Translations under genes and position numbers: made by a program
Part shown: positions 7,801-58,054 of the stretch, piece by piece
Layout: each line of letters starts with the position of its first letter
Position numbering within the stretch: the first letter of the stretch is position 1
Assembly (NCBI RefSeq): GCF_964355755.1
Contig: NC_092676.1
Coordinates: 29,034,871-29,098,870 of the forward strand
Source: Antedon mediterranea
Taxonomy: Eukaryota > Animalia > Echinodermata
Direction: 5' to 3'
Length of the DNA stretch: 64,000 bases
Notes under the pieces: model-generated
The model's database searches: none
Told to the model about the DNA's origin: nothing
Seen by the model: the letters and a program-made list of their open reading frames with translations, nothing else

Positions 7801-10800
7801 ACAAATTACAAATTCAAACCAACATTTATTTCATTAAATGTAATTAAAATATAAATAATACAGAGCATAAAGGAAGGATCAACCTAGAAGTTGGCCCTTT
7901 AACAAGACTGTTAATACAAACATCGATAGATTTCTGAATGTTATTATTTTGAGGTTTTCTTTAGTGTTTTCACCTCCATTTTGCTTTCAATACTCACACT
8001 ACTGTAAACTAGGCCTCAAATAAAGCTAAATTATTTTAAATGTCTACTGTAAATCATCGCCTTCACACACGACATGAATAATCCTAAATTCAGCTTGTGT
8101 TTCAAACGATAATATTCTACGATATCAACATCATCTTAAATTTGCTTTCTATCATTCCAATGTCTAAATCATTCAATTGATATTCAATAATGTGTATGTC
8201 ACAAACTGTAATTTCTTAAAAACCTCTAACATTTTAAATGGGGTTCAGATACTAAGGTAAATTGACATGGTTGTAATACATTAATATAGGTATTTGTATT
8301 GTGTAATCACATACAGTACACAGTATTTTGTAATGTGTAATCACATACACAATAAAAAAAAAAGTTGAAGTCCCTTTTTAACCATTGAAATACAGTAAAT
8401 TAATCTACAATTTACTTTTTAATTTACACAGACCTGTTGATTGAATTCAAATTGTAAAAGAATTTTATTTTCTAAACAAAATGTACAAAATATATAATTC
8501 TTATGAATGAATGATTTATTTTTTTAAATTCATGAGTATAAGTTATATTTATTGATATGGGTTCGTTTAATAGCCATTGGAATAGCATTGCCTATCATTT
8601 CTTACTAACTGTGATAAATCCATATTCTTGCATGGTCCATATTTATTGTATGAGTGGGCTTAATGTTTCTATAGCAATTATTGATTTTCAATGAACCACC
8701 CACAGCATGTCGGAAAGATTATGAATACAGAGCGCCACCTACAGAATGCCTGAAGATACACATGGCATAAAGAAGATTGACACTAATGTATTTCCAGAAG
8801 ATAAGAAGTTTATTTCTATTTTCTCCTTTTTTTTAATTAACAGATTTTTTAATAGTTCAGAGTTCATCCTGAGTAAAATACTTGTTTTGTGATTAAGATT
8901 ATATTCTATATTCTCTAACTTAGATATAGGCCTATACTACCACTAACATACTGTAACATTACTATTGTATAGTACAGTATCAATATATAGCCTTGTATAC
9001 CAGGGAGTTGTAAAATACAACTCCCTGGTATAACTGTAGGTTTTTAAAGAATATTCCAAATAAGTAAACTATACTCCATGTACTTTTATACAAATCCTAT
9101 GTAGTATAGCTGTAGATCAACACTTTATTCTCACAATATTTGTAATCTTGCTTTTTTAAACCCATGGCATATTAGAATGTTAGGCATTAGTACTCCATGT
9201 TCAAATTTACTAAACAACCTTTAAACGACCCTTTTGTGTACGGCACACAGATGTTTATCTAACCACCACCCACGGAATTTAAGGATGTTTACTTTTATAA
9301 TTTAACTAAAATTATATTTGCTTTTAGTTATCTCAAGTACATGTTCTATAGGCTATTATTTCAAAATATTTTGGACGTGATATAATCCTATTAGTGTTTT
9401 TTACCTCAATGCAGGGATAAATGCAGGGATAAAGACAGGCACAACACTTTGATCTAAACATAATCTATGTAATCCAATTCACCAAATTTTGTACAGTATG
9501 CAGTGGAGTTGTGTCTTGGTGGTTAAAATGCTTGGCTACCAATTCAAGTGTCCTGGGTTCAAGTCCTGTCATGTCAGGATTTTTACTAATGACAATTTGC
9601 AACTCCACTCCCAAAGACTTGTAATAAGACTTTGTTTATGTAGAGCATCTTGTGTCTTGTGAACAAGATTAGAAGGATAGTGAATGAAATTGCTTTGGTT
9701 ATCCTTGGCAATACATATTAAACAAGACTATACTTATTTCAATTACTCTGGATGCAGAGCTGAAAAAGTGTGCCAATGTTTAAAAAATGTAGCTTCTAAA
9801 TAAATTATTATTACTAAGCCTCTACATAAACCAAGTCTTATTACAAATACATTTCTCATCTTAATTACTTTTATCTGATCAATTTCCATTGACTACAGGC
9901 TTTCATCACTAAAACAATAATTATATTTTAATACAAGGTCGCTGACTGAATAATGACTTATTAGTATTTAAGAAATAGACTAAAATTATTATGCAAATTA
10001 GTCTGTTTAATCATCATAGAATAGAAGGCCGGAAAACTACAGTACATTAATATCTATGCTTAACGTACAGTAATATATTTTGTTCTTTCTAGTTTTTGTA
10101 GTTGTACCACTTTGAGTAACGTTGATGAAAGACAGAGTAGATGATGATAAATTTGTGATCAATAACGTTGCCAATTAATCTGTTGATACTTACTCTATTG
10201 GAATCCAAATCCACCAGCCAGACGTCGTCAGGTAGACCAAAGTTATTCTTGTAAAGAAGAAAACTCGCAGGAATCCCAATGACAAATGGTGTTGGCGCTA
10301 GTAACAACTGAAATCATATTATCAATTAAATCAAATTAAATATTAAAAAGACAAAATTAAAATCATTTTAATATATTCTTATTCTTAAACATATTTATTT
10401 CATACCAAATCTTATCATGTCCCCTATTATAACATTTGAAAATAAGTACTGTAATGTACAGTATATGTACTTAAAATAAACAATTTATTGTTATTGTTTA
10501 ATGTACTAAATGTATTTAAAAGACTACAATAATCTTTGCAAGTGCACTGAGATTAACTATGGAGATACAATATACTAAGTACAGACTGGAAGACGGCAAT
10601 CACTACACAACTAAGGTCTGGAGAACTGATTAATTAATCTTAAGATACATTTATTAATTAATAACAAGACCTTTGGTACTGGACTATTTCAAAAGGATGA
10701 CAGGTTATAAAGATAATATTATAACTAGTTTGTAATCAATTTTCTTACTTTTAGATTGCAGATCAAGTACCTACTATAGATACTGAAACCTACGTATGGA

Positions 10801-13800
10801 TAATTGAAATAATCCTGTTAAATTTGCATACAAATCCATTATCTTAAGGATGTCCTTAGAGATTAAAGCCAATAATGGCATAAATAATCCGTTGTTAATC
10901 CAATGAAAATAAACCAGATTGATTTACAATATAAACGCAAACTTAATAATCCTTCAATTTTTTAATAAATTTATAACAAAAACATTTATAAATTGGATTA
11001 AACAATTTAAAATTTGACACCACAATCTCTTCTATTCGGAACTAGTACTTGAGTTGAAAGCTGTTGGCACACCTAAAGGATTATTAGTGTATGGCTAACA
11101 AAGAAATCATCAGGAATACTGTATGCATGTCCAAACAAGAGGTAATTTTCAACATATAGTACAGTAGTAGTACTGTATGTCAGTTTGCAGTAATGAACAA
11201 AATCACTGTTGGCACAATTCTGATATTGTTGGGTAGTTTAGGAAGACAAACTTATTATATTTTGACAAAGTTATCTTGAATCTTCATCCCACTAGTCTAT
11301 GAGAAACTAGTAACCTTCTTGTACTGATATCATTTTTACTAGAAAATTAACTACACACAAAATCCTGTCGACACTATCAAATTAGTTTAACAAAAATATG
11401 TGATGATGTCATCATGTCCATACTGTATGGGCACATTTTTTTTATTTTGTTGCATAAAGTTTGATAGTAGACAAAGTTTAGCATGATTAAAACTCTGTCT
11501 ACACTATCAAACTTTATGTGACAAACACATGTGATGTGCCAATATATGGACATGATGACATACGACATTTAAGCATATCACTACCATATTATTAAAAAGA
11601 GTATCTCACTGTACTCAAAACCTAGAATAAATATTGTAGAATTTGAATGCTAACATACACATTGTATGCATATTTTACATAATGCAATGTAGTTTGATAC
11701 AGAGGCAATTAGTGATAATAAATAGCATATTAAACTGTAATGAAACACCTATATTACATAATTTATGTTTAAATGGATGGTAATGGCTTCTTCATTTTAT
11801 AATCGTTGTGTGGGCATCGTATCGTATATCTTTGCTCAATCTGTTCTAATTGTGTTGCGTTTACAGTTGACAAAACATTTGATATTTTATTATGTTAAAG
11901 ACACATACTTATTTTACAGTGTTATTGAATTGATTTTGTTATACCTACAGTACATCTTTTATACTATCTTTTTTATAATGGATTATACAAAATGATATCT
12001 CATTTTGAAAAACAGGTACAATTTCAATCAAATTTGTGTTAGCCTTTTGTGGATATTAAATGGGACGTAAAAAGCACAGAGTTTAGTTTGAAATTTTAAA
12101 AAATCAACAAAGTGGCAATATGTCTGACTTCAGTTACTACAGGTATGGTGTATGCTGTTTTGAAGGCGTCATCTCCACCATTCAATACCCCACCTTAAAA
12201 TCAACCGCTCCCAATTACTCCCTTAAGGGTCTTTCACACCTGTTCCGGCATGGTTCCAGTCCGGCACGGGCAAATCAAACGTCATTGTTTCGTTTCATAT
12301 TGATTGGCGCATACCCGCATGAAGCGTTGTGAAAACGAAGCATTAACATTTGATTTGAGATCGGAACCATGATTTGAAAGACCCTTCATAGACTTGATGA
12401 TACAAGATACTGTACATACCTGTTCTGCTGATCCCATACATGTTGGTAGCAAGGGTATAACTGGAAACATATACTCCATTGGGTATATCATGTTAACAAA
12501 CGCTAGTACACTCATTGATAGTGCATTGTAATCTCTTGACTGTAAAACAACCTACAAAAACAACATTTACAGTAATTATTATATCTTATCAAGCTTATTA
12601 TATTATGTTATAGTCACATATTTTGCTTTTTGTAGTAGTAGAGATATCACTGGGTGGTTTAGAATTTATTTCTAAATAAAAAAATTATATTTACACCTTT
12701 ACTAATATAGAATCTCTTTTTAAAATATTGGAAAAAACCCTGAATATCATCTGACAGTTTAACAATGAATATGGTATAATACTGTATACTATTATTCCGT
12801 AAATTAAACAAAATATATTTTCTGCCTAACAAATAACATGTTTTATTGTGTTTAATAATATTCTTTTCATTTGATTATTTGTTTCATAAATTTATTTAAG
12901 CTAATATTGTTGCCAAGGTTTATTTATTGTGTCAGGTTTTTATGCTTGATTACAATCATAAAAACAATCGTACATTCTGTGCAAATAGTTGAGTACATTA
13001 TTCTATGAATTGATAAATACAGCAATATCTAGATTGTTTGTTTCATCTTTTGACAATCATAATAATCATATTCGGAAACAGAGTAGTTTGCTGTGTCTGC
13101 GTCTAAAAATAATATAGACTGTTCAATTAAGAACTAGCACAGTGACAATATGAAGGAACTACGTATATCCATAGAAGATACAATCAACAAAGAACAGAAA
13201 GCGTAACACTAAAGTGCTATCATCATAAAATATATCCTTAGTAAAATTTACTTAAACATAATAAACTATATTTAGTACAATTTAAAATATTTGAGCCTAA
13301 TTAATGAATGTTTATGTGTTTATGTAACAAAAAAATAGATGAATAATACTTATGTTAATAAAGAAATATTATTATTTGATTAAATTCACTTTTTTATAAT
13401 TTCAAATTTACCCAACAATGACAACAACCATTTTCAAGGTAATGTAGTTTACTGTACTTCATACATTGTATAAAAGATCTATACATTTGACAAATGCTAT
13501 TTAAAGGTAAATTTCAATTGATTTGTACGCTAGATGATTAACTATTTTAAGTGTTATCACAACTAGATCGAAATAGAAGCAATGTTAAATGAATGAATGC
13601 AATATTGAACAAGAATCAGGATGCGAGAGAAAAAAATGCCAATAAGATGCTATTATGAGATCGACTTTTGACATCTGCAGCGTACGTCATCGTACAATTG
13701 CATCGGTTACATTAATGGTTTTCTTGAAGCAAAAGGTGTAGAGTGTGAATCGTAGCTTGCGTCATTGATGATTGTAAGTGTGTTCGGTGAAGCGTGACAT

Positions 13801-16800
13801 TATCATTGCATACTGCATGCTAAGTTTCAATCTATGAATGTTATCGTTCTAACACCAGATCATAATGATATATTATGAACAATTACATTAGATGCATAAA
13901 CTACCCAACCAAAACTAATTTTATTATTGTAAATTAAACAAGATCATCAAAATGTTATTTATAGCAGGCCTATTGAGCTAACACATACAGTAATGTATAA
14001 CAAACTTAAGGATATCAAAATTACTTAATATTATCGATATCCAGATTTATTGTAATAATTGTTTTTCTTTATTCCACAAAAGCCAAATTCAATTAAAAAT
14101 TTATTCATAGACGTTCATCATTAAAACTAAAATATCTACCAATAAAATTAATCAAAAAATAACAGAAATTAGCAGTTTAATACTGAGCACAGTACTGTAC
14201 TTCAATTGATGGGAAACTTCAAAACTAAATTCAATGACTTTACATGATATCATTATTACAAGAAGAAAACTGTCATTTCTCAAATTCACACTGTGAACAT
14301 TGGTTATAAATTATTAAACATGAAATATGAAATTCAAAATGCTGACAATAGATGCTGACGTCAATGCATTATATTTCAGTGGAAAAAACATGAAAATGTA
14401 TGTGAAAAGTAGAACAAAGTTTAAAAACAAAAAGATCAACATTTCAAATTTTAACAAGCACTGCTAGTGACATGAAAGCATTCTCTATCTATTCTCTAGG
14501 AAACATTGATCATTTTGTGCACAAATCTAAAGCTGTCTATACACTATCAAACTGTATGTGACAAAAGATGTGATGTGATATATGGACATGATGATGTCAT
14601 ATCACTACTGTATTTGGTCATATCACTACCATATTTGGGCTGATCACACTTTTTGGTCAAACTTGTCTGATAGTGTAGACAAAGCTTTCAGGATGAAACT
14701 AAACACAAGCTAAAATGTACATGCCTAACTTTACTGGTTAACTATAAATAAATGGAATACCAACCTTATTTTCTAAGATAATAAGCGTCAAGACTTTGAG
14801 ACAGGTCTCCACGCCAAGTAACTCCAGTGGTAGATGTAAAGGATAGTCGACCAATGAGAACCTAGTATGGTCGGGTAGTGCAAACGTCAACGGAGAATGT
14901 AAATTGTTTGGCAACACATCTAGCTCAACTCTTGTCTTCCCTGGTACGGGCACTGGCGCACTTAATAAGCGCAAAATCCACGTTTCTATTTCACGGATGT
15001 CGTGCCGAACCATCGTTGGTATCTCATTGCATATACCGGTTAAAACGCCCCAAATTGAATCCCTTAAAGAAAAAATAACATGCCAGGGTTAGTAGAATTT
15101 TGTTTTTTATTATTTTAATAAAATTTCAAAACAACAAAATATTGCATGTCATAAAGAAATAAAATGGTTAGATGGGGAAGAATTAATTAACACTTTTGTA
15201 CTATTAGCATGGCAGAGAAAATTACTGTCACGGTGAAAGTATAGTTTTGATGGCGCATCCCTTTCTGATCCACAATTTATGATTTAGGGACAAATGTTAA
15301 ACTATAAAACTATGATACTGTATGATGATCAAATAAAGATTGAAACGTTGAAGCATGGCTTGCTTCTCATTTCTTGGAGTTAGTTTTATGCTATGATACT
15401 GTATTTCATTTATATAATAGTTATTTTAGCTTTAGTATGCTAAAATAACTATTTAGAGCTAGTTAGGTAACCATATAAACCATCATATCTAGTAAATTGT
15501 CATTATTTATTGGTACAGGTACTATAGGCAGATGTTCCACTATAAAATTCTTACAGTATTTTCCTGGGAAATAGGCTTTTTTTAGTGTAGCCAGTTTTAA
15601 AAGCAATAGTCTGTAAAATTAGATGAAAATAGATTTACCATCTATTTTCGTATTTTAGTCCCATTGGTTTGATAAAAAGAATGTTATACACATAGCTACA
15701 GCTAAGTTTCTATTGACTATTAATTGCAGATAGTCAGTCAGTACTATTTACTTTAGCAATGAGTAAATGGGAGGAAAATAAAAAACGTGATGAACCTGAT
15801 GCTTCACGTGTAAATTTCATTGATTTTATTGGACAATTCAAGGAAGAGAAATCCATAGAAAGTACAAGATAATGCATTGTATTGCATTTATTCAGCTGAT
15901 GCCGCTATACAGAGTTAACAGGGCCAGTAATAGAAAAAAACTAAATAGATTATTTTTGTATTTTTGTGGTAAAAAATAACGAACAATGGTTGCCATTGTA
16001 TTAATTGTTCGTATTGTAGTCGACTTTTAAAGTGATTATTCAGTTATTTTAATGCCAAAATATTTTATATTTGAAGGTAAATTATTGTGGGGGTGTATGT
16101 ATTGTATTGTATTGAATGTGTATAACAGTTTACAGTACATTCACCCATCAAAATATAAAGGATCTTTATAAATTAATTATTTAACGAATGATCAATCATT
16201 CATTATATATTGAGTATGATGATACTGAAAATGTTTAGAAAATTAATTTGTACATTGTTTTAACCAAAAAAATATAACAGTAGGCTTACAAACATTTGCT
16301 GCTTACATATGTTAATTTGAATGCTAATAGTATATTGCTTTTATTTTTAATTAAAATTATTTAATCAAATATTGCAACCAATTAATAGTAAACAAATAAA
16401 ATTCAATAATTGAGCTGTCAAATGCATTTAGACTTTAATAATCTTATTTACCAGAAGCCTCTAGTCAAACCAATTCTAAATACTGATGACCAAACAGCAC
16501 AAAACAATTAAAAGATAACAATGACGCTGATTACGTCATACAATAATTGATTTTACTATTAGCAAAAGGCAAGCCCGAGATAATTCTTAAGAGTTATACA
16601 CGTGCATAATACCGTGTGCTTGCGTGGTAAATAGCGAAGACATCAATTATGAAAAGTAGATGTCAGAGATGAATTACGTCGTTGCTGTCGTTGTACCAAG
16701 GACTTGCTATATTTCAATAAGGTCAAAGTTTAAATATTGCTATACAGTATTATGAATCAATCATTATTAATTAAGTCTGTTTAAAGATGACAGAAATTGT

Positions 16801-18556
16801 GAAATATTTAATTTCTATCATAAATTATAATTATTAATAATAAACAAGATTCATAAGGAAATTTCATGACTTTCTTCTACTGTAATACACCATCCATATC
16901 TTCTCTAATGAAATTTAATAATCATAAAATATGAATTTTTCCAGACTTGTAAAAATGAGAATCAGCTGTTACGTGATGTTACACAACGTTCAATATTGTG
17001 TTACCGATCAATAATAAGGGTCAAAAGGTCAAACATGATGACAGAGGATCTATGTTAATGTTCAATATTAACATTTAGGCATGTACTTTACTCAATTATT
17101 ATTTAATAATAATAACCCATTAAAGATTTTTTTGTTTTGTTAATAATACTGTAATTGTAATTTCACATACTGTAGTAAAGTAATACTCAATATATTATAT
17201 TTCATCAGTGTATAGTAAAATAAAAATAATTCATAGTAATTGTCGTGCTACACAAATGTGCCTACATTGTATCAGTAAAACTGTATTTGATTTATTGTCA
17301 ATTATCTTTTGAAATTGTTAATCTATAAAGTAAATTTTTAAAACGTTATTTGGATCTGAAGAAATCTGGAGAAATAAAGTAAAGTATTATAGAATTGAGA
17401 ACAATTCTAAACTGCATAGTACTTTATGCAATGATTGTTGACTTATTACAATATGCATAAAGCTAATTAAAGTTTAGTATGCTGGGCCCCATGTGCATGA
17501 TGCTGCATACATACTCATGACAAGCTACAGTAGGCAGTGTTGTTTAGATTTAATATAATAAAGTGATAACAACGATCTCTTGGGTTCATGTAATAACACA
17601 TTGTCACATTAATGTAATTTTGAAGTTAACATAATTACAATACAGTACATTAGCTATGTATACATCCGCTTAACATTTACAGGCTTATTGTACAGTGTAA
17701 ATATGTTTTTCAGTCACATGACAGAAATGAGGGGTATTAATCTGTGCATAACACATATTTCAGAAATATTGTTTATTCTTTAATTTTTTAAGAAGAAAGC
17801 AAAATGAAAATATATTTATGTTTGAAAGAATGAAGGAAATAAATGTTGTTTGATGAATGAATACTTACTGAAACTCAAAATTAATATTTAAAAAACTCAA
17901 ATACTTTATATTTTTAAAAACACCCACCTTAAATTATTTTTTCCTGCATGTTTTCTACTGGTACTTCTGTCATGACATGCGTCAATTAACCTCTTCAAAA
18001 TAAAAAGACATTCTCTGAACGTCGACACGAATGGGTGATGACTCAAGATGCACAACGACGTTAGAGAATTATTTCGCACTTTCTTTGATTGTTTTATGCG
18101 TCGTTTAGTGCGAGGAGACCTTTTCAGTTCCTGATCGTCGGAAAGGGGTAAACTCAATGTGTCATTACTACTAGATGAATTCTGTCGGTTATTTACAAGC
18201 ATTTTCTCACGTTTCCCGCCAGCAGATTTACGATCTGATGTCCTGAACGGTCGGTAGAAATTAAGACAAATTCCATAACGCATACGACCACTATCTTTAT
18301 CAGTTAACGTGAAAACAAAGGACGTATTATCTCGCAAACTGTTTCGTTTTTGGCCAACCGTCAAGCAACCTTCGGGCTGGCAGAAGAATATAACGTCTGG
18401 TGGTAACCGGAAGTCACGATGATCTTCGGCGGGGTACCGTCGCAAAAGTTCTGGTGTTTGCGCAACTTCATTGTTCCGATTTGGATGTTTAGCGCCAACG
18501 ATTACAAGGTAATCTAAAAGTCTTGGACAAAGGTAGCTACCCTTCCAGTTAGACAT
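1863..18556 (-). CDS. MADD: MAP kinase-activating death domain protein (DENN/MADD, Rab3/Rab27 GEF), 5' part; gene continues beyond the left edge
   Basis: Phase-consistent GT-AG exons: 18556-17928 ([21 protein letters not shown]...FFCQPEGC..., uDENN), 15062-14765 ([12 protein letters not shown]...[27 protein letters not shown]), 12551-12420 ([15 protein letters not shown]...[10 protein letters not shown]), 10307-10194 ([16 protein letters not shown]...VWLVDLDSN), 7547-7467, 4589-4296 ([14 protein letters not shown]...[16 protein letters not shown]), 3656-3329 ([13 protein letters not shown]), 3013-2859, 1949-1899/1863. These motifs are characteristic of MADD. Confidence 0.95.
2041..2187. mobile_element. 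Tourist-like (PIF/Harbinger) MITE, family A
   Basis: Family TIR AGCTCTGTCTACACTATCAAAC, internal atatggacatgatgatgtcatatcactaccatattt. Confidence 0.8.
2589..2718. mobile_element. MITE family A
   Basis: Same TIR and core. Confidence 0.8.
3861..4228 (+). mobile_element. 5S rRNA-derived SINE (SINE3) in a MADD intron
   Basis: 3861-3977 is a full-length 5S rRNA-like head (tacggc..taccacgttgaaacaccggttctcgt..gatcaccgaagttaagc..ttggatgggagacc..ctgggaata.cgggtgctgta) with no oligo-T terminator, followed by a ~220-bp body, AATAAA and an A-rich tail. Confidence 0.85.
6069..6215. mobile_element. MITE family A
   Basis: Same TIR and core. Confidence 0.8.
9503..9815 (+). mobile_element. tRNA-derived SINE, family B
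   Basis: A-box-like (tggtggtt) and B-box (ggttcaagtcc) head; inverted homologue at 33980-34214. Confidence 0.65.
11363..11590. mobile_element. Two adjacent MITE family A copies, the second truncated
   Basis: ctgtcgacactatcaaa...ttgatagtagaca, then actctgtctacactatcaaac...cactaccatatt. Confidence 0.7.
12226..12386. mobile_element. Short MITE, PIF/Harbinger-like
   Basis: TIR AGGGTCTTTCA / TGAAAGACCCT around a GC-richer interior. Confidence 0.55.
14531..14686. mobile_element. MITE family A
   Basis: Same TIR and core. Confidence 0.75.
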
Positions 18557-19164
18557 AATGTTCTTATTGTCATAAACTGCTGAACAGCATCATACTTCAA
18601 ATTTTGAGTTACAAATTTGTTTATTGCTTTATAGTTATTAAGATGTCTTCAATTTACACATCCTCTCTGAGAATTTAAAAAAAAAAGTGTTATCATAAAT
18701 ACTCCTCAACAGTTTCGTTTCAGTACTTTATCCTTCTCTATAATCATATAAAAACAAGTGCTAGTTTAGTTATATATAGCCATACACAATCATCCCACAA
18801 ATAGATATTCACTCATTATTGACTACTACTACGTCTCTCTCTCTATGTTTAATACACCGACTCCGAAGGAGTTTCTCTTTAATTTTATGTCTGCTTTGTA
18901 TCAAATCACGGACACACAGTATCTAACTACCATCTGGGCTAAACTAAACAAAAGATGGTTTGGTATATTACGATAAAGACAACACTATCTATAAGCTAGC
19001 TACCAGCAATTCTTTCATTTAAAACCCATCAGTGTCAGCAGGCAGCAGACAATCTCTCCGCCCCTTTTTCTACTCGCAGGCTACCACCACCAGCAGCACG
19101 TCAAAATAAAAAGATGTTTCACTCAGCCATACTCCAGTGTTTTAACATCCTATATTTTACTTAC

Positions 19165-19452: not shown

Positions 19453-22400
19453 ATGGACGATTTCAAAATGAACGCTGCAAAAATGGTATTAATTAATTGT
19501 CTTATCGGTTCAAGATATTGCTTTGGTAAATTTGGTTTGTAAAGGCGCCAAACGTAGATTAGATAGGCTAGGCCTAGGCTAGCTAGCTAGAGAGTACAGG
19601 TAAAGAAGAAAGCGAGAGTACGCCTGAAAGAAGACCTCATACACACATACGTTCATCTAAATGATAGGCCTAGGTGTTGGCGTCCTTAGTAACCAACCAT
19701 ACATATTATTATTTATTGGAAATTATTGTAGGCCTCATGAGAAAAATACATTTTAATATTTATAATAAAATATTAATTATAATAAATAATAATTATTATT
19801 AATTTATTAATATTATTTATTGATAAATAATTAATAATAAGTATTTAATAATGTATTTGTTATGCGCGATTTGAACGATTTGCGCAATTTGAAATTGCGC
19901 AAAAAAATCCTTGCGCAATTTGAAATTGCGCAAATAATTCTTGCGCAATTTAAAATTGCGCAAGGATTTTTTTGCGCAATTTCAAATTGCGCAATCAACT
20001 TGCGCAATTTCAAATTGCGCAAGAAAATCTTTGCGCAATTTTAAATTGCGCTGCACAATTTGTAAATTGCGCAAGATAGTTCTTGCGCAATATGACACCT
20101 TTGCGCAATTTGAAAACGAACTGTAAATTTTCCCATACATGGCTAGGCTAGGCCTACTAGGCAGAGGAGTTTAACATTTAGTATTTTATTATATAAATAA
20201 GACCATTTCAATGAAGATAATGTTTAATACTCACTTTTTAAGTTTTTAATATGTAACCTTGTCAGTATCAGTAGTCCAGACCCTAGCTAGGCTAGAGTAG
20301 TATAGCCGGCCGCCCGCGCCGCGCCCGCCTGGTGGAACACCACCGCTTCGTTTTCCTTCGTCGGTTCTTCGACGGTATGCTAACTTATAACAATATTTGC
20401 ACTACTAAAATAAGGAAATGTGATATTTATCTTTAATTTTGAATCATTCTTAGAAATTACTATAAAAATATGGGTGTGCATGATTTCACAATCTGTCGAA
20501 AAACCTTGCGCAATTTGCAGATTACTTGCGCAATTTAATACGTTGCTTGCGCAATTTGAAACACATGTTTCAATTCAAATTGCGCAAGGATTTTTTTTGC
20601 GCAATTTCAAATTGCGCAAATCGTTCAAATCGCGCATAACATATTCACACATCTCCAGAGCTGAATCAGTTAAAGCCTAACCTTTAGAACTGAACAATTT
20701 ATAAATCATTTATAAAACTGATTTTCTTTCTAGCTGATTTACTGTATGAGGCTTTGTATCAAGAGATAATAAAAATTTCTGCAAATCAATTTTTTTTTAT
20801 TTTAACCATCAGATAGCTGCACAACAGCGCAAGAACAGAGCCCAGTCACCAGAGACGGAAAGCAACTGGGATAGCTCAGAACCTGAAGATAATGTTCCTC
20901 AGATAAGCTCAGATGACGAAGAGAGTTTTAAGTACACCCCAAAAAAACAAACACAAAGGCAAAATAATAATAAAAGTAAATCAATTTGAAATTATTTTGT
21001 TGAACTATCGATGTAAAATAATAAATCGTTGAATCATCCTCACATTAATTGCATCTTGATCCCATCATTCTTCTTATTAATAATGTTATATTTTGCCAGC
21101 ATTATCATTTACTTACTTTTATTTTCAATTTATTTATAGTCAACTGAACTCGCAGGCATGCTAATATCCAGGGGGCCTCTTTAAAATGATAAAATATACA
21201 CATCTATTATACCTACCTAAATTATGGTTATTATATCACATTCAGTAATGTCTTTGTACTTTTTATTTACATTTTTAAGGCTATAACAACAGTACAACTC
21301 AGAATTCTACCCCACCTGTTGCTGCTGCATATGTAAAGCAAGAACGACACTCAAATAGGAACTCACCTGCTCTCAGCACAAAAAGGTTGAAACACGTTTG
21401 TTTTTTTGTCATTTAAAAATAATAACCTTATTTGGAACATCTTGGCTGGAACACATTCACTAGCACTAATCATGGCCATGGTTGTTTTGCTGAAGATCAT
21501 ATTTTATTATCCATACCATAGTTGGGCACATATAACACTGTTTTTGTGTCCAAAGCTGGCCTTACCAATTAGCATTTAGTTTTATATTTTCAGTGCCAGT
21601 AAAAGAAACCAAAAAGATGTGAATGTTTTTGTTGATAATGGTTTTGATTCTGATGAGAATGAACCAGTTTCTTCAACAATTAAAAGAAAGCCAAAAGAGG
21701 AAGTACCACCATATGATTTTAAAGGTGTAATAAAAGGTAGTGTTATTTCTGCTTCAATTGTGATATTTACAAATTTAGTTTATTTAAATCTACAGTATTA
21801 TATAACACCTAAATAAATTTCTGTCATTTTATTTGACGATTGTCGTGCAATAGTACGCACTATGTAACGATTGTTAAATAGTACTTTTTTATCGTTTATG
21901 AAAAAAATCTCATTAACCTCATGGCATTATTTGTACCATTCCACTCGTAATCAATCAATACTAAATTGTTGTATTTATATTTTTATAGAAGGACGAGATC
22001 CAAGCAAACAAACAACTCAGCCAACAGGCAAGCATCGAAAAGGACAATTATATGATGTGTCTACTAAACAAGAGAGTAAGTATTCCTATCAATAATATGT
22101 GATGTGTCTACTAAACAAGGGAGTAAGTATTCCTATCAATAATATGTGATGTGTCTACTAAACAAGAGAGTAAGTATTCCTATCAATAATATGTTTGTAT
22201 TATTTAGTTTCTAAACTTAGTAATTATTCATTTTATTATAGTTTCCATTTTAACAGGTAAAAGTCAGAATGGTTCAGCTTTCGACTCTGATGAAGAAAGG
22301 GAAATGTTGGCAGAAATTCGCACAGAGATGAAGAAAGTGAATAAAAACCACCTTGATGTTCCAAAAGGTAAAACATAAATTATTGGAATTTTTTTGAATA

Positions 22401-25400
22401 CATTTTTTCTCTCCCTTCCGTTCTAACACCTTGGTACAACCTGTAAGAAAATTATTATTATTTTTTTCTTATGAAGTTAAATGTTGTCATACTTTAGGGA
22501 GAGATGTTAGACAAAGGGTTTCGGACAATCAACCAACCGTCTCAAAAAGTACACCAAAGGTATCCAAGGTCAAGGAAGACAAGAAAAGTGATCTTTTTAC
22601 TGTAGGAGTGCCTGCATCCAATAGAGGACAAGAATCGTTGGAGAATACTGGACAGCTGGAGTTGCAAAGTGTGACGATGTCAGAGAAAGGTTATCCCACT
22701 CAGCCATCAGGCAACATTGGAACCAGGTAAAGGGTACTCTTTCAATTTGTTGGGCACCGGAAAACTACTCTTCTCTAGAAATATATTCCAATCTTAATTC
22801 CCCAATGTACTAAACTTAGATTTGTTTAGAAACTCATCTTTTTGTCCAGGCTTATACATAATAATTCCCTCCATTTTAAATTTGCAATTTGATTCTGTAT
22901 TTTAATCTGAGGTGATTGCATACTATAAACATCCTAAGGCGCCTTGAGTACCTTAGGTGGCGAAGTGAACTCTAGAAATCTGTATTATTATTATTATTAC
23001 AAATTGTATTAATTCTTTTTACAGATATGTTTATCATTATGAGCATGGTAGCCTTGAGTATTATGACACAAGGAATGGAAGAGAGGAGATCTACATGGCA
23101 AATATTGCTGACAAGTAAGTATTGTGATTAAATATGTATTGTACATCAAACGATGCCACGACTAAGGCATTAACAGAGCCACATTTAGCTATCTATAAGC
23201 CATAGGTCCAGTGTACACATCTAGCTCATGCACTTTAAATAACCTAGTACATCTTTCGAGACGAGTAGGGGGTTACCCCGGTGTATTAGTACATCACAGC
23301 CACTAATTATAACTGGGTCCTCTGCACACTCACGTCATATTGCGAATTTTGGACAAAAAGTGTTTTGAGAGCGCTTTTGATTTAAACATTAGCGCGAGCC
23401 TATCTTTACCGCTGAGAATTGTATTGAGAAACCCGAAGACTTCACGCGAGCGAGACGAACTGACTAAGAACATTATTACTATAGATTTTCACTTCATACA
23501 CGCTTATTATTGAACAATAGTTAGTATAAATATCTGCTAGTTAATTAGAGACATTCGATGTTACTAAGAATACTAAAGAAATTACTTATAATACAAATTT
23601 AAAAGATTTATAACGATTCTAGTTTAGGTAACATTCGCCCATTAACAATGAAAACAAACAAATCCTGCGTAGGAAATCGCGGAACTCTAAAAACTTTGTT
23701 TTAATATCACGCTAAAATTGTTTCCGAATTTTTAAATACATATTTGTAAATATTATGTTAAATTTCAATATCTTTACTTTTAATCCTCAAAAAATCAAAA
23801 TGTTGATATTTTTTAAAAGAATTTTATGATCATTTGAAATCGGGTATATTTACTATCGATCGCGCTCCGCCGGTGCCCGAGTAGGTGTGTACGCGTCGCT
23901 TTTGCAGGCTCTATTCCCAGTAGCGAGTTTCGGTCGCGCTAACATAAGCAATGTTTTCTACATTTACATGCATTAGGGGTAAATTATGTTTAATTGTTTT
24001 TACCGCATAACAAAATTCCCAAATTTATTTCTTTTGTTGCCTAACCGTTTCTGTCACCCTAAAATCAAATGCTTTAACTGCATAATTTTAAGCGACAATA
24101 ACATACAAATAGGCCTACTATAATTTGATCACTTCTGCGCAATACTTTAAAGTTGTTGTATACAATTATTTTAAGAATATAAATAAAAACACACAGAAAC
24201 TAATAAAATGGCAACTAATTGGAAAGTCAAACTCATTTATTTCATCAATTAAATATTTGAAAAAAATCAAATCAAGTAAGATACTGCTGTGTAGGCCTTA
24301 AATATGATTACTGTATTTTTTTAGTTTTAATTTGTATAATGGCCTAGGCCTAATAATATAGTACTAACAACATGTTTATTTCTAAAGGCAAGAATAACAA
24401 ACAGCTTTATTTATTTACCTTCAATATTAAATCTATGACTGAGAAACCTCAATTATGAGAATCATTTAAATTTCTGTCACCGTACATTTCATTATAATGA
24501 AAACCTTTAATTTAAAAGACATTTAATTAATAAGAGCTGGTCAAATTTTTTTTAATGTCAACATGCTGTCCATAAATAGCCGCTTTCAAGTGATGCAAAT
24601 GTTTTCTGGAGTCAGATCCTATAAAAAATATAGAAATATAAAAAGTATGTTAATTTAAATATGTATTTGAAAGATGGGCTAGAGGTGGTATAGGCCTACT
24701 GCATGATAAATTAGGCTGAAAAACCTAGCATGTGGTCCTAGGCCTACTACAAGGCCTAGCTTGATGTTTTAAATCCCATAAAACGTTTGAATTTAATACA
24801 AGTACAAAATCTAATTTATATAGAGTTGTAAAGTGTGGTACATTCAGTACATTAATTAAAATAAATGAGAATGGGGCCTAATATTAATAAATAAACATGT
24901 AAAAAAATTGGCCTAAACGACTACGTGTGTATCTTATACGCATTGATTAACACGCAGTACGCGTTGGACCATCAAGGCTAGGCCCAGCTTCGCACAAACC
25001 ACCGTTATACATGTGATTTGTTTACCTATTTCAATCGCCATTTAAAAAATACCTGAAAATATCAACATGCCCATTTTTTGTCAAACGAATATTTACATTA
25101 CATAGTAACTTTTTATTTAGTCACTCGTTTACTCAAAAATTGAGGAATTTTTTTATGGTCTCGTAAAAATGTACAATATTATTATTGATAAAAACCGTAT
25201 AAAATCTAACAAAAAGAAGAGCAAATTCAATGATTACCTGACACGATCATAACTGCTATCCTGTTCCAAAAACCAAGTCACATGCTTCTTCAACCCTTGC
25301 TTTAATTATTCTCATGAATTATTCATAAGGAACTATAATTTAAGGCTTTCAATTGGTTAAAAGAGTTTAACCCTATTAAAATTATAAATTCACATCATTT

Positions 25401-25972
25401 CCGGGTGATGTTGTCGCGCTTCGATGAATCTCAGAAATCACAAATGACCGCTAGAGGGCTCACTACTTTTTGTCTAGTCTAAATGAATGTGTCTGGGAGA
25501 CGAGGTCACCCAGTATAAATAAAATATTTCAATTCAATATAGTCAAATTATAGCATTAATACAAGTCTATTTTCTCTCTTTTTTCAGATCAGAGAAACTA
25601 GTTAGGCGTGGCATTCAAGAGGTTTTTGCAGCTTTCAGAATTCTAGTTGATTTCATAATAATCCTTGTACTTGAAACCATTCGGTTTTTAGCTTACAATA
25701 TCCTACAAACGTTAATCGTTGGTGTCTTTACTGTATTAGGTGATTATCTATTAAAACCTATATTAACCGGTCTATTCAACAGCATTCTTCAACCTATTTC
25801 AACGTTTGTTTACAATGTTGCTGTGGCAACTCGGACAGTAATGGTACCAGTTGGGGATACTTTAAAGATCATCTTCACACCTTTGATAATGTTAGTGAAA
25901 GCTTTTAGGTTATTTGAAGTAAACTTAAGGAGTAATAAGCCGGAAAATATACACCAGATTGAAGATGTTTGA
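19453..25972 (+). CDS. Uncharacterised ~448-aa protein; acidic/disordered N-terminus, hydrophobic amphipathic caveolin-like C-terminus
   Basis: Nine exons with consistent phases and no internal stops: 19453-19485, 20813-20975, 21280-21385, 21594-21736, 21989-22075, 22257-22367, 22498-22726, 23025-23114, 25588-25972 (TGA); 1347 nt in total. Last exon encodes SEKLVRRGIQEVFAAFRILVDFIIILVLETIRFLAYNILQTLIVGVFTVLGDYLLKPILTGLFNSILQP...KAFRLFEVNLRSNKPENIHQIEDV*. Exon 1 is the least certain. Confidence 0.8.
19858..20641. mobile_element. Non-autonomous TIR element, Ginger-like (TGT...ACA ends, 4-bp TSD)
   Basis: ~67-bp near-perfect TIRs TGTTATGCGCGATTTGAACGATTTGCGCAATTTGAAATTGCGC..., TSD TATT at 19854-19857 and 20642-20645, subterminal arrays of TTGCGCAA. 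Confidence 0.8.
22052..22194 (+). repeat. 47-bp tandem triplication spanning an exon end and splice donor
   Basis: gatgtgtctactaaacaagagagtaagtattcctatcaataatatgt at 22054, 22101 and 22148. Confidence 0.95.
23190..23324 (+). mobile_element. Deu/Nin-domain SINE fragment, interrupted; tail resumes at 25496-25540
   Basis: ttcgagacgagtagggggttaccccggtgt resembles the Deu-domain core (AAGAGTAGGGG..CCCCGGTGT); related inverted copy at 53520-53690. Confidence 0.6.
23325..25491. mobile_element. 2167-bp non-autonomous DNA transposon with CAC...GTG ends, 4-bp TSD and RSS-like asymmetric TIRs (Chapaev- or Transib/RAG-related)
   Basis: TSD TCTG at 23321-23324 and 25492-25495. Left end CACACTC-21nt-ACAAAAAGT; right end (reverse complement) CACATTC-11nt-ACAAAAAGT. 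Removing the element restores the host SINE tail hairpin. No long ORF. Confidence 0.8.
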
Positions 25973-28835: not shown

Positions 28836-31800
28836 TTATCGCAACAAATACCCAAGTATAACTTGACTAATGAGAAGCACTGCGATTATAAGTAGGTCTT
28901 TGGTTGAGATGCCGCCCTCTATATCACCTCTACGTCGCTGGTCATGCATGTGGCGTGCAATTGCCTCAAGACGACTGTTAACAAGTTCTAACTGAGCTTG
29001 TTGCCGTTTGTTTCCTTCCTGGATTGATGCTATAAGCTGATTGGATGTTGATCCTTGGATACGAGCACCAGCTTGCTTGGATTGATAAGATGGTGATTCT
29101 ATAAAAAATGTACAATTTCGCTACATTTAAATTGTTGTTTAAGCATTAAAAGTAACTTTAAAGTACATTTACACCCTTTTTGGTGACCACATATATCTAT
29201 CTGCAGTTTAAATTTGGTAAAGATCCCAGGGCCGTAGCCACCAGTACGGTTGGTAAGGTTTCAACCTGACCATTTTTTTACAGAAGCCTTTGACAACCCA
29301 GTGGCTTGAACAGAGATTTTTCCCTTTTTATGTGAAAACTGGACCACTTTATTTCTTGTGGCTACATCACTGGATCTGTAGTGTAGTTTTTACGTTATCC
29401 TGAGACAAACACAACCACATAAAAAAAGAGAAAAATCTACCAATAACTTACTTTCATTCTCTGATACCGAGTGTCTATCAGGCTCCGGTGTTGAACACTC
29501 ACTCTCACGATCTACATCATGAAGAGGTCGTAAACTCAACGACGTTCTGCCTTCGTTAACTTTATCTCGCGCCCGTAGAATTGATTCTTGTTTCTTTAAT
29601 CTCTTGTCAACGTTTCCTTGTTGTAATCCTTTCGGTAAGCTGACGATACTAGTGGCGCGGACAATTGCGGTTTTGTGTCGCGTTCTCGTTTGTATGACAC
29701 CATTGTACTCAAATTCTTCAATGTCATTCTGTGGATCCCATGGTCTGTTACTAAAAGAAATAAAGCAGTATTTGGTAGTTAATTGAATCCTATACTTATA
29801 CTGCAGCTACATTACATTGCTGCAGTCTGTCTATTGCAACACCAGATATTGATACTGTATAAAACACCTGTGCCTTTGTAGACATGTAATCTAGTATACC
29901 TACTGTATCAATAAGGGTTTGAGATTGAATATTTGAATTCTATAATTATAATGTGCTACATTACATGGCTGCAGTCAGTCTATTGAATGTACCTTTAACA
30001 ATAGATATTGATGCATTAAGCACCTGTGACTAAAATCTGACATACTGTATTAACTAGTACAAGTGTTATTTACAGCAGTAGCAATGAATGTCTTTAACTT
30101 ACTCCATATGTTTATAAACCCAATCACCAGTGATTTCATCTAATTCAAACAACTTAGGAACCCATTCTTGATTTTTAACCTTGCGTTCTTTGTGACCCTT
30201 TCTCTGCTCTTCCTCAAGAAGATACTTCTCATGCGTAGCTGCTGTCTGGTCACCTTTCTTTATAGCTTCAGCTACATGGACCCATAACCTGCAGAAAACA
30301 AAATGGAGATTAAGCCTATCGTAGCACCTGCCAAATCATCTTATGCTCTGTCTGCACTATCAAACTCAAAAAGTGTGATGTGCATATTACTACCACTTTG
30401 GGTACATCACACTTTTTTTCTCAAACTAGTTTGATAGTGTAGACAGAGCTTTAGAAAGATGGAGAACAAATCTATCTTTTAACACCAACCCTAACCTTGG
30501 AAAAAAATTGTTTGAAAAAATTATATAAATAATAAAAATCAAATATAAAACTCACTTTTCCGATTCAAAATTACCCTGTTCATCAAAAGACACTGTCGAC
30601 CTAGGTAACCTCTTAGATCTGACCTCTGGGGTCACAGCCCAAAACAGTTCTGATTCCTACAAAATTAGAAAGAAAATAAATAAAACAAAGCAGATACTGT
30701 ATAATATAACTGTTCTTATAATCCAATAAATTTATTACATTTTACTGTAGTAGTAAAAATAAAAATATTTACCCCTGTTCTCTTGTTTTTCATATAAATT
30801 TCTTCATCCTGAAAAAACACAAATGTAAGAGTTACCAATTTACTTACTTACTTACTTACCTACTTAATTAACTTGATTTATTTCATATACTGCTTGTTCA
30901 GAATGTTTGTATAATGTCGCACCAACAAATAAACCACATATAGACTTACCCATTGTCCTTCTAACGTTGCTAGGGTGTCTTTACCAAACTTGAGTTTTCC
31001 GGTGATTTGATTCCATGATCCACCAAGGAATGGCTGCAAAAAATGAACAATTGGATAGATACTAATTCTGCTGTGTTGTGTTGTTATCGAGACAATAGAT
31101 AATATAATAATAATAATAATAATAAATAACATTTATAAAGCGCAAGAGACAAAGGTTTCAAAGCGCTGTGTTTTCCAAGATCTGTGCAAGTAATAGCGTG
31201 TGATTATGCTTCTCTGAAGATGTTACTACATTGAATACACTCTTTATATTTCCTCTAAATTCTCTTACCTTAAGTTTAAAGTCAAGTTCTGCTCTATAGC
31301 CAGTTTTCTCGCATTCTATAGATACTTTCCCCCCATATTCCATCGTTAATGTACCATATAAAATGCCTGATAAAAAGGATATGTACAGTTTAACAAAAAA
31401 CAACAACAAATTTATTTACCATCTTTATTGAGGGTGGCTTATCTAGTTCCAGTGAAGAAATTGATCATTAAGGGTATAAAGTATTTACATTAAAATAATT
31501 TGAGTTAGCATCCATAGCCTAGGTGCATATCTACTAAACCATAATTGATTTTCAATGTAAAATATATGAAAGGCTTAAGTAAATACTTAACTAACCTTTA
31601 CAATTTGCATACGGCATAGTTATAAGGTAGTCTTCTCCACGGGTAAGGAATGTGAGCTTGCCAACGCCATCCATGAGAGCTGATACAGAATTACCATAGA
31701 ACTTTGACTTGGCTAGAATACCACCACTTATACAGAAACCATCCTTGCGGTTTGATATGTGAAAGACTGAGATCGGCGGGTGATGCGAAACCTAGAAAAC

Positions 31801-34800
31801 ACATTATTCATTAAAAAAGGTGTATCAATTGGTACGGCACTAAGAGTAACCTGTATTGAATTAAAACCGTTGGATAGGCTACAAATAAGTAAAAAGGCTG
31901 AGAGGATATATTTATTCTTACCTGCTCTGCAATGTAGAACGTCCTACTGTTCGTCTTAGCGTGTGTCCACAAACAACGGTACGTCTCTCCTATGATAGGG
32001 TTGTAAGGTTTCTTTAAACCCTGAAACAAATCAAGCATATCATATTAATATTTTTTTATATACGTCCAGTTTACTATTTATTGTCCTTGTAAGACTTTAA
32101 TTGTAGATCTTATTTTTGAATGTAATTCTAAATTGTTTTCAACTTACTTTTGGTTTTTTATAAAATCCAGATAGATACCACTTAACCACTGATTTCATTC
32201 TAGTGTAAGGATTCTCTTCTATAGCAGCTCTGAAAAATAAATTTTTCTTTAACTTTTTTTTTATATTTCATACTCATCCAAATTACAGGATAATTTTAAA
32301 ATAGCACCATCCTTAAAGCTCTGTCTACACTATCAAACTAAGTGCGATGTGTCCAAATATGGTAGTGATATGACATCATTGTGTCCAAATGGACATAATT
32401 TTTTGTCACATAAAGTTTGATAGCGTAGACAGAGAGCTTAAGAATAAAAAAAAACATACTCAGACAACATATCAGCATGATAGTAGAAATCCGTAAGCTT
32501 GTCTAGAAGTGACCTAGGTTCAAGTATAAAGGTCGGTAGTACGACCTTTGACAGGTCCATTCCAGGTCGTACTTGCTTTATTAATCCCCATATAAGACCT
32601 TTGTTTTCTTCACCTAGAGTTTCTGATTGTGTATTCTCCTGTGGAATTAAATAAATGAATGGAATGTTTATTTAAATATCCTTGAAATTGTAATTAAATA
32701 CTGTTGTAATATGGTTTGAATTGTGAGAATTTATTTATTTATTTCGGTATAAAAATATAATACAAAAAGGAGCAAAAGCTGAAAGCATTGTATGTACACA
32801 CTAAAAATATTATGGGCAGCACACACAAGGAAAAACAATACATTAGTAAGCAAAAACAAGAACCATATACAAATACAGACAATTGTCAGACTACACATTG
32901 CTATAGTAATCTGCACCTGCCCAGCATTTTTCATCTATATTGTATTTAAAACATAGGTCATTTATTATCATACTATCTCTTTGTAAGTCATATATTAAGT
33001 ATATTGTTTAGCATACCAAACCTTAGAAGATGGTTAAATTGGAATGAATTTCTCTTTTTGAAAAATAATATATGGCCTTACAACAAGCATTTCTTTAATT
33101 CTAAATATTTAATCATGAATCAGTTTATACTTCATAATAATAATACTAATCGTACCAAACCAAGTTCCTCTGCTTCATTCAATACATAAGTGGTTTCTCT
33201 TAGTGGGACTGGTAACGGTTCTACACTGTCTTCCTCCTCTGACATTTCCGAGTCAGACTTACTTTCTTGGTCCTTCTCCTCATCTTTCTCAATATCAGAT
33301 TCATCCAAGCCTGAGAGAAAGCGAAGGTCATAAAAGGTCCTAAATTACTATTAAAACTCATTTGTGATACCAGATTTGTTGTTTTGTAGTTGTTGTTGTA
33401 CTTGCTTGTTTTATTTGGGATCTTGCACACAACAAGAAACATTGTTTTCTTCTAATACAAGATACTTAATAATGGTCTTTAAAATGGCTTCATTATATTA
33501 TGTATTGTTTATGTTGCCATTATTGAAATAATAAAGGTTCTTCTTGAATTTCATCTTAGTTCTTGTAAAAACCAAACATTTTAGCCCAATCTTAGTACTA
33601 AATTTAACAGTGTCCGTTTTTGTTCGTTTTATTTTAAATTTTTCGAAAACTTCTACTGTACCTTGGTTGGCAAAGTGTTTCTCAATTTCCGATTCATCGA
33701 GTGAATTAGTTTCAAGCTGGAAAGACTGTGTGAGTAGATTAGTGTCGATCTGTCCGCTGTCTCTCATCGACTTCATTAAAAGACTAGAGCATCGTAACGC
33801 CAGCTCCAAGGCATCCATCCAACATTTGCCGTCAGCTTCCGATGGCGCCCGGAATATTAAGTAGTTATTAGGCAGTGGGATTGTAAGCGCTCCCATGGAT
33901 TCACCTTTAGGCCCCTAACATGAATAATAATAAAAAAGTTTTATTTTTTTATTTTTTAAAAATTTATATCATAATTTAGGCAAATTGCCAAGAATAACCA
34001 TAAGCAAAATCATTCACTATACTTCGTAAAGGTGGCAATCCTGTTCAGAAGACATACATACTTAAGATGCTCTAGGTAAACAAAGTCTTACTACAAGTCT
34101 TTTGAAGTGAAGCTGTAATTTGTCATTAGAAAAAAAATCTGACATATGACAGGACTTGGACCCAGGACCCTTGGATTGGCAGCCAAGCATCATAACCACC
34201 AAGCCACAACTCTACTAAATAAATTGATGCTATAACACTATAAACATAATGTAGACACTTTTTTGTAATGTTTTTGTTTTTGAGTTCGTATTGTGTCCGT
34301 TGGATATTGTGCTCCGCCAACAGAGCAGAGAATTTCTATGTTTTTTCTTAAAACAATTGAAAATAAATGATACTTGACTTGATTATTATTCCTTTAAAAA
34401 AACATTGGAACTTGTAAATTGCATATTTTTGTTTTATATACATTGTTTCAGAATTGTTATATTTTGCACAGTACCATGAAAAAAAGTATATTCCTGAAAA
34501 AACTATTGAACTATGATATTTACAATTAAGAATAGTAGGAAATAGCAATTACTTAAAAATCAATACTTATTATTAATTTATTGTTTCTAAATTGATATTA
34601 CAACTCAAACAATAAATAGAAATATGAATAATACAATAAGATATGAGAAGGAATCTATAAATATAGATGGCCTTAACCGTGGATCTTTAATTGCAAGGAT
34701 TTTTCTCATTCGTAATAGTGTTTGGATCAATATACTGTAGTACATCAGGCAGACATAACACATTGCTGCATTCAAATAGCTGGATCATTGCAGAGTTTTG

Positions 34801-57955: not shown

Positions 57956-58054
57956 AGCTCTGTCTACACTATCAAACTAGTTTGACAAAAAAGTGTGATG
58001 TGAAACATAACATAACATTTATTTGTCACATAAAGTTTGATAGTATAGAGAGCT
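57956..58054. mobile_element. MITE family A
   Basis: TIRs with TTA target duplication. Confidence 0.8.

Follow-up and report, generated by a model that had tools for sequence, protein, structure and literature searches.

A multi-copy, gene-less transposon with short and long recombination-signal-like ends in the feather star Antedon mediterranea

The window analysed here, a stretch of 64,000 nucleotides from the feather star Antedon mediterranea (NC_092676.1, positions 29,034,871–29,098,870), contains at 23325–25491 a 2167 bp non-autonomous DNA transposon copy whose ends resemble the recombination signal sequences (RSSs) recognized by RAG, each having a heptamer, a spacer and a nonamer, with a 21-nucleotide spacer at one end and an 11-nucleotide spacer at the other. 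On balance, the element appears to be a cut-and-paste transposon that is young, present in multiple copies and devoid of genes; it probably arose by deletion from a Chapaev-type (RAG1-related) element and is probably mobilized in trans. The hallmarks of Chapaev are 5'-CAC..GTG-3' termini and a target duplication of 3–4 bp (PMC4079192; here and below, published work is cited from the accessible portions of each source). Both are found here, the duplication being 4 bp at one insertion with empty paralogous sites, so that the preference for Chapaev in a first-pass annotation of this sequence holds as the best fit among CAC-ended groups. Together with a possible zinc-finger relic, these features point to a Chapaev-type enzyme. 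If the missing enzyme is, as seems likely, such a RAG1 cousin, the short/long end design would extend to a transposon group for which the literature searched contains no account of it.

The long end (23325–23361, plus strand) consists of CACACTC, a 21-nucleotide spacer (23332–23352) and the nonamer ACAAAAAGT (23353–23361), and the short end (25465–25491, minus strand) consists of CACATTC (25491–25485), an 11-nucleotide spacer and the same nonamer (25473–25465). The first eight bases of the two ends agree at seven positions, and the inner block common to both is an identical decamer (G followed by ACAAAAAGT), longer than the nonamer first noted. Between them the spacers agree at only 3–4 of 11 positions, with positions 8–10, directly after the heptamers, reading ACG at one end and ATT at the other, and comparison of the ends revealed no longer inverted repeat beyond the tip octamer and the decamer. 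Each heptamer matches the RSS consensus at 5/7 positions and the nonamer at 7/9. The element is flanked on both sides by TCTG (23321–23324 and 25492–25495, plus strand); when duplication lengths of 2–8 were compared at the flanks only 4 bp fitted, ruling out any other length at this site. The ends, both spacer lengths, the identical nonamer and the TCTG duplication had all been described in the first-pass annotation and are present exactly in the sequence. The end anatomy and boundaries are thus confirmed as real.

Other copies of the element were seen in contigs of public sequencing runs. Two of these runs (X6 and X9) come from one sample, possibly the one from which the window itself derives, and their contigs represent other copies within the same genome with no independent occurrence; a further run (X1) holds internal pieces of the element at depth 2–3 and neither end, and was not used as evidence. 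Contig depth over the element is ∼380–490 in X6 and 1550–1800 in X9, compared with 7–13 and 37–52, respectively, for single-copy contigs. With depth taken as a proxy for copies and not itself a copy number, these ratios suggest roughly 35–50 copies of the element in the genome. Compared with the listed contigs of high depth, the copy in the window shows nine substitutions and four small insertions. The depth ratios and an identity of 99.6% argue for a young family with recent activity, and the enzyme is therefore probably still present in the genome.

The contigs also delimit the element. Depth stays at zero through 23321, and contigs of the family begin exactly at 23325, among them one from X9 (record 9; 178 nucleotides, depth 1754) that starts at this base with no differences from the long end; a shorter X6 contig (record 4; 57 nucleotides, depth 494) likewise shows no differences from the long end. 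On the opposite side an X9 contig (record 24; 197 nucleotides, depth 1798, one difference) terminates exactly at 25491, and a diverged relative present in single copy gives a gapless alignment over 25343–25492. Among the matches listed (16 of 55 pieces), all five X6 records that reach the tip continue through spacer and nonamer, four of them without gaps and one with a 1-nucleotide gap in the nonamer. Because the depth step and the contig end fall exactly at 23325 and 25491, both boundaries are independently fixed. The 21-nucleotide long end, identical in the high-depth contigs, and the 11-nucleotide short end are the majority forms of the family; as these equal the ends of the copy in the window, the unequal spacers do not stem from an indel peculiar to this copy, and the majority long-end contigs rule out an originally symmetric repeat that decayed and acquired a private 10 bp indel. 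The earlier inference of a non-autonomous member of a transposon family is likewise supported by the high-depth contigs and by other copies with the same ends.

The insertion splits a very high-copy host repeat (23193–25525, plus strand; halves 23193–23324 and 25492–25525), apparently a short interspersed nuclear element (SINE). Its summed depth reaches 195,000 in X6, against 13 for the unique flank, many contigs connect the two halves without the element, and a diverged copy lies at 53574–53661; a search of Rfam with the repeat gave no match. In other copies of the repeat CCTCTG runs directly into GGAGAC. The single TCTG at these empty sites implies that the insertion added exactly 4 bp, in agreement with the duplication first proposed. 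In one other single-copy member of the repeat (X9/X6 joint 23296 to 25510), TCTG at the corresponding position is immediately preceded by TCTA; this 4-nucleotide near-duplication might have been left by excision or, the copies being very numerous, have arisen by chance. No empty allele of the locus itself appeared among the contigs, but since these break within the host repeat its absence carries no weight.

In other copies of the element the long end has different neighbours, with five X6 contigs and four of five X9 contigs departing from the stretch at 23325. These flanks also bear on the reading that there is no transposon here and that the motifs have arisen by chance. For 42-mers of the window paired at random, a word of at least ten letters was common to 96 of 19,931 pairs, compared with 23 of 20,000 shuffles; the common 10-mer alone is therefore expected in ∼0.5% of random window pairs. 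However, depth steps exactly at both CAC ends, varied flanks elsewhere and empty sites with one TCTG refute a chance origin, to which practically no weight is given.

A minus-strand transcript of the element is represented by one contig from one run (X3 record 11, 460 nucleotides; organism B, another study), the run type being guessed as DNA. The contig consists of 15 T followed by 24219–24617 and then 25237–25262, and its terminal loose letters resemble a template-switch complementary DNA (cDNA) primer. Shifting the joint by one ambiguous base yields a 619-nucleotide GT..AG intron (24619–25237, minus strand) with a pyrimidine-rich acceptor. The first exon (25238–25262, minus strand) starts at ∼25262 with an ATG at 25250, where an open reading frame (ORF) of 34 codons opens; the second (24219–24618, minus strand) contains the end of this ORF at 24530 and AATAAA at 24241–24236, ∼17 nucleotides before the T run at 24219. 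The transcript is probably polyadenylated. Its start lies 229 bp inward from the tip of the short end, and this one cDNA-like contig points to the short end as the promoter or 5' end of the element, which is accordingly assigned to the minus strand. Two further observations concern transcription. A CpG-rich patch within the element (23825–23940; 51% GC, 10 CpG per 100 nucleotides), with extra depth in X6, is possibly a second promoter, and a plus-strand AATAAA at 24202 is close to the point where the minus-strand transcript would be polyadenylated, as is the case in elements with two genes placed tail to tail, although in AT-rich DNA such a signal is weak.

The 34-codon ORF may be the decayed start of a transposase. 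Its beginning (HLHHL, IYGQ, KN; H at 24601) faintly resembles the Chapa/NZD zinc-finger start shown in file 5 of PMC4411706, and K and N lie seven and eight residues past the glycine, as in the echinoderm RAG1L rows. Among the 127,996 residue positions of the window a relaxed Chapa/NZD motif is present once, at the ORF start, compared with 0.5 occurrences per shuffle of the window; the strict form is absent from these positions. The zinc-finger likeness of this peptide is a hint and not an assignment.

Several points, concerning both the protein and the target, weigh against a Chapaev-type enzyme. The relaxed zinc-finger motif was tuned after the peptide had been seen, and requires a two-residue gap and a C-to-Y change. 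By eye, the ORF relic aligns best with the echinoderm RAG1L rows of PMC4411706 and not with the Chapaev rows. The short-ORF region is without a match in a set of 5.8 billion proteins, 1.84 billion representatives, the ESM Atlas and the PDB, and Pfam scans of 17 ORFs of the element, 118 further ORFs of the window and ten read-through frames showed no transposase, with nothing above noise in the frames of the element; the assignment to a superfamily therefore depends on hallmarks of the DNA. Contigs of a single sample supply all the copy data, and the duplication length was measured at one insertion only. The empty site, with 51% GC over 35 bp, resembles the Transib target cCASTGg, and within one Transib lineage duplications range between 2 and 5 bp in length (10.64898/2026.08.26.747230).

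As the protein searches gave no link, the likeness to RSSs might have arisen by convergence, the enzyme belonging to another superfamily with 4 bp duplications or to an undescribed one. This is rather improbable: CAC..GTG termini with 2–5 bp duplications are typical of the CMC/Transib clade (PMC12730594), and the ORF start carries the zinc-finger hint.

The alignment of the relic with RAG1L rows would fit an origin from a RAG1L-type transposon (TransibSU/RAGL, possibly family A-like) that is active in crinoids and either makes 4 bp duplications or left an aberrant junction at this site. The host is an echinoderm, RAG itself makes 4 bp duplications at times (PMC1131882), and the ends of PflRAGL-A have a heptamer, a 10 bp spacer asymmetry and an AT-rich nonamer (10.1101/2023.08.20.553239). 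Nevertheless, described RAGL duplications are 5 bp (10.1101/2023.08.20.553239, PMC7204232, PMC9435367) and that found here is 4 bp, the A-rich TR2 block of RAGL ends is missing after both heptamers, and neither a RAG match nor a RAG2-like remnant emerged when the six frames were translated through stops. A 2017 preprint moreover describes the RAG transposon as lost in crinoids (10.1101/100735). A RAG1L-type origin is accordingly considered unlikely. The fuller claim that a recently active crinoid transposase of this type reads a near-canonical nonamer over unrelated 11- and 21-nucleotide spacers, with no TR2 block and with 4 bp duplications, is a little less likely still.

Similarly low probability is assigned to the element being a non-autonomous member of the Transibs already known to have short/long ends, its 4 bp duplication then being a lineage variant or CTCTG with one base lost. 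In several Transib families the 5' end is RSS12-like and the 3' end RSS23-like (PMC1131882), an arrangement also found here if polarity is taken from the one cDNA-like contig, and all Subgroup I Transibs are asymmetric (PMC9435367). Transibs with intact ends are present in echinoderms (10.1101/2023.08.20.553239), the target is GC-rich and like cCASTGg (PMC1131882), and one other long-end flank ends in TG. However, most of the other flanks seen would have no G at position −1, assuming that the aligner extends through a match, while the left flanks of TransibN1_AG end in G in 46 of 46 cases (PMC1131882 Fig. S4, counted by eye). The Transib ends in the same figure are alike directly after the heptamer, whereas those of the element are not, and the heptamer here ends in C and not G. 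Duplications of CMC elements are 2–4 bp, compared with 5 bp for canonical Transib (10.64898/2026.08.26.747230), and that of the element is 4 bp. Canonical Transib has no Chapa/NZD domain (10.64898/2026.01.24.700457, PMC4411706), so that the Chapa-like relic, if real, rules it out.

The pairing of the two ends is addressed by a single-copy relative that is 87% alike over 23356–23519 and reads CACACTT, 11 nucleotides and the nonamer minus one A. The shortened tip appears in both X6 and X9 as a loose end at 23356, outside the aligned part. Judged by eye, the long end of this relative is that of the family less exactly 10 nucleotides, with heptamer and nonamer kept; a change of 10 nucleotides that leaves both motifs intact is in keeping with a requirement that they lie on one helical face. 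The relative shows that a long end can also be 'short' (11 nucleotides). A diverged single-copy right end (X6 record 17), gapless to the tip, has a depth similar to that of the relative in X6, and if the two are partners they may constitute an 11/11 element. These observations count against obligatory asymmetry; the relative may also be a dead copy. As a strict rule, the one-turn/two-turn pairing proposed in the first-pass annotation is no more than a candidate, given that the relative may belong to an 11/11 pair. A requirement for helical phase only, with 11 or 21 nucleotides tolerated, is the leading candidate although it falls just short of an even chance; strict short/long pairing is a serious but less probable alternative, and a spacing of the decamer that is unimportant is doubtful. 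The natural 11-nucleotide variant of the long end offers a ready test of a pairing rule versus helical phase.

For a Chapaev-type element, the proposed mechanism begins with a transposase supplied in trans that would bind both ends and is predicted to contact the octamer at the tip and the decamer further in from the same side of the helix. As a dimer, the enzyme would cut beside CAC and, through a second domain, grip the decamer one turn inside the 5' end and two turns inside the 3' end; insertion would then occur with a 4 bp stagger; a short/long pair of ends would be preferred. The decamer-holding step is modelled by analogy on the nonamer-binding domain of RAG1 and on the preference of ProtoRAG for unlike ends (10.1101/2023.08.20.553239, PMC8289069). 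Whether the 12/23 rule originated in Transib ends or in RAGL-A ends is debated (10.1101/2023.08.20.553239, PMC8355894). If a Chapaev-type enzyme with 4 bp duplications uses ends such as these, then the design is older than the split between Chapaev and Transib/RAG or has arisen repeatedly, and if the RAG1L-type reading were true, the element would be the closest invertebrate match to 12/23 signal logic. The short/long end design itself is not new.

The remainder of the window (∼31% GC, animal DNA) contains several other features. The element is flanked by exon-like ORFs at 22398–22730 and 25589–25972 (from the ORF list, with splice sites judged by eye) that are attributed to one unnamed host gene on the plus strand; the second ORF resembles an uncharacterized eukaryotic cluster of ∼152 amino acids (score 0.93, low recognition value). 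Pfam scans identified two genes on the minus strand, MADD (DENN domain; 3318–18589), an exon of which is 98% identical to Antedon mediterranea and 94% to Anneissia japonica, in line with a feather-star host, and an oxysterol-binding-protein gene (28836–33914). A small element at 19858–20641 is probably a miniature inverted-repeat transposable element: its ends (TGTTATGCGC) are almost perfectly inverted, TATT is a candidate duplication, and palindromic TTGCGCAA repeats lie within it. At 44612–50846 two diverged inverted repeat copies flank a tandem array of 108 copies of a 32 bp unit (47018–50477), with no convincing duplication found. One family of dispersed repeats (2066–2192, 6092–6214, 14578–14687, 40520–40580, 41685–41797 and 57950–58002), itself containing repeats of the ATCACTACCA type, has CACTATC, 11 nucleotides and ACAAAAA as internal motifs.

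A motif scan for related ends produced 23 viral matches and at least 117 metagenome matches (37 of those listed having short flanks). Among the matches listed, the metagenome spacers show no preferred length (12 matches at 11 nucleotides, 14 at 21 and 8–14 at other lengths), the viral matches lean to short spacers, and none of 140 loci has a partner end with a 4 or 5 bp duplication; BLAST gave no match to the element. With neither partners nor a BLAST match, these hits are read as chance and were rejected as related ends. In the literature searched there is no description of short/long RSS-like ends for Chapaev or for crinoids, although Repbase Reports or Repbase/Dfam may hold one, and ends of echinoderm RAGL-A were likewise not found there. 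The exact motifs do not appear as ends in the accessible parts of the supplements of PMC9435367, PMC4411706, PMC1131882 and (other than file 1) PMC4079192, nor among the matches listed for the supplement of PMC7204232.

Short/long RSS-like ends have been published for five Transib families (PMC1131882), for PflRAGL-A (10.1101/2023.08.20.553239), for ProtoRAG (PMC8289069) and for Subgroup I Transibs and AanRAGL (PMC9435367). The RSS-like design reported in the first-pass annotation is therefore present here, but it had already been described for Transib families, RAGL-A and ProtoRAG, which that annotation missed. What is new is the combination of short/long ends with a 4 bp duplication, unrelated spacers with no TR2 block and a 7/9 nonamer.

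The element is like Chapaev (a group of the CMC/CMCT clade; PMC4079192, PMC4411706, PMC12730594) in its CAC..GTG termini, its 4 bp duplication, the existence of non-autonomous families and possibly a Chapa relic; it is unlike Chapaev as accessibly described in its short/long heptamer–spacer–nonamer ends, and it has no recognizable transposase, the Chapaev enzyme being of the DDE type with C(2)C, LH and H(4)H motifs. Listed Chapaev3 ends are short inverted repeats with TWA duplications (PMC3014272). The asymmetric Transibs (Transib5, Transib2_AG and TransibN1-3_AG, PMC1131882; Subgroup I, PMC9435367) also have a heptamer and an A-rich nonamer, a difference of about one turn, the short end at the 5' side and gene-less families, whereas they differ in their 5 bp C..G duplications, in the sequence that their ends share adjacent to the heptamer and, for canonical Transib, in the missing Chapa domain. 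The 5'-short polarity of the element is that of both Transib and ProtoRAG (PMC1131882, PMC8289069).

PflRAGL-A of Ptychodera flava (10.1101/2023.08.20.553239), compared by description only, has the same 10 bp spacer asymmetry, an AT-rich nonamer and an ambulacrarian host, but differs in its 5 bp duplication, its conserved 9 bp TR2 block and its RAG1L and RAG2L genes; according to the accessible part of the same source, no transposition-competent RAGL element has been described in echinoderms. The 12/23 RSSs (PMC1131882) resemble the ends of the element in their CAC, in a nonamer matching at 7/9 positions including the critical A5 and A6, in their unrelated spacers and in the short spacer, 11 lying within 12 ± 1. 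They differ in that 21 lies outside 23 ± 1, so that the two spacers do not conform as a pair, and in the 5/7 heptamers, and the signals here are the ends of a mobile element and not those of antigen-receptor genes.

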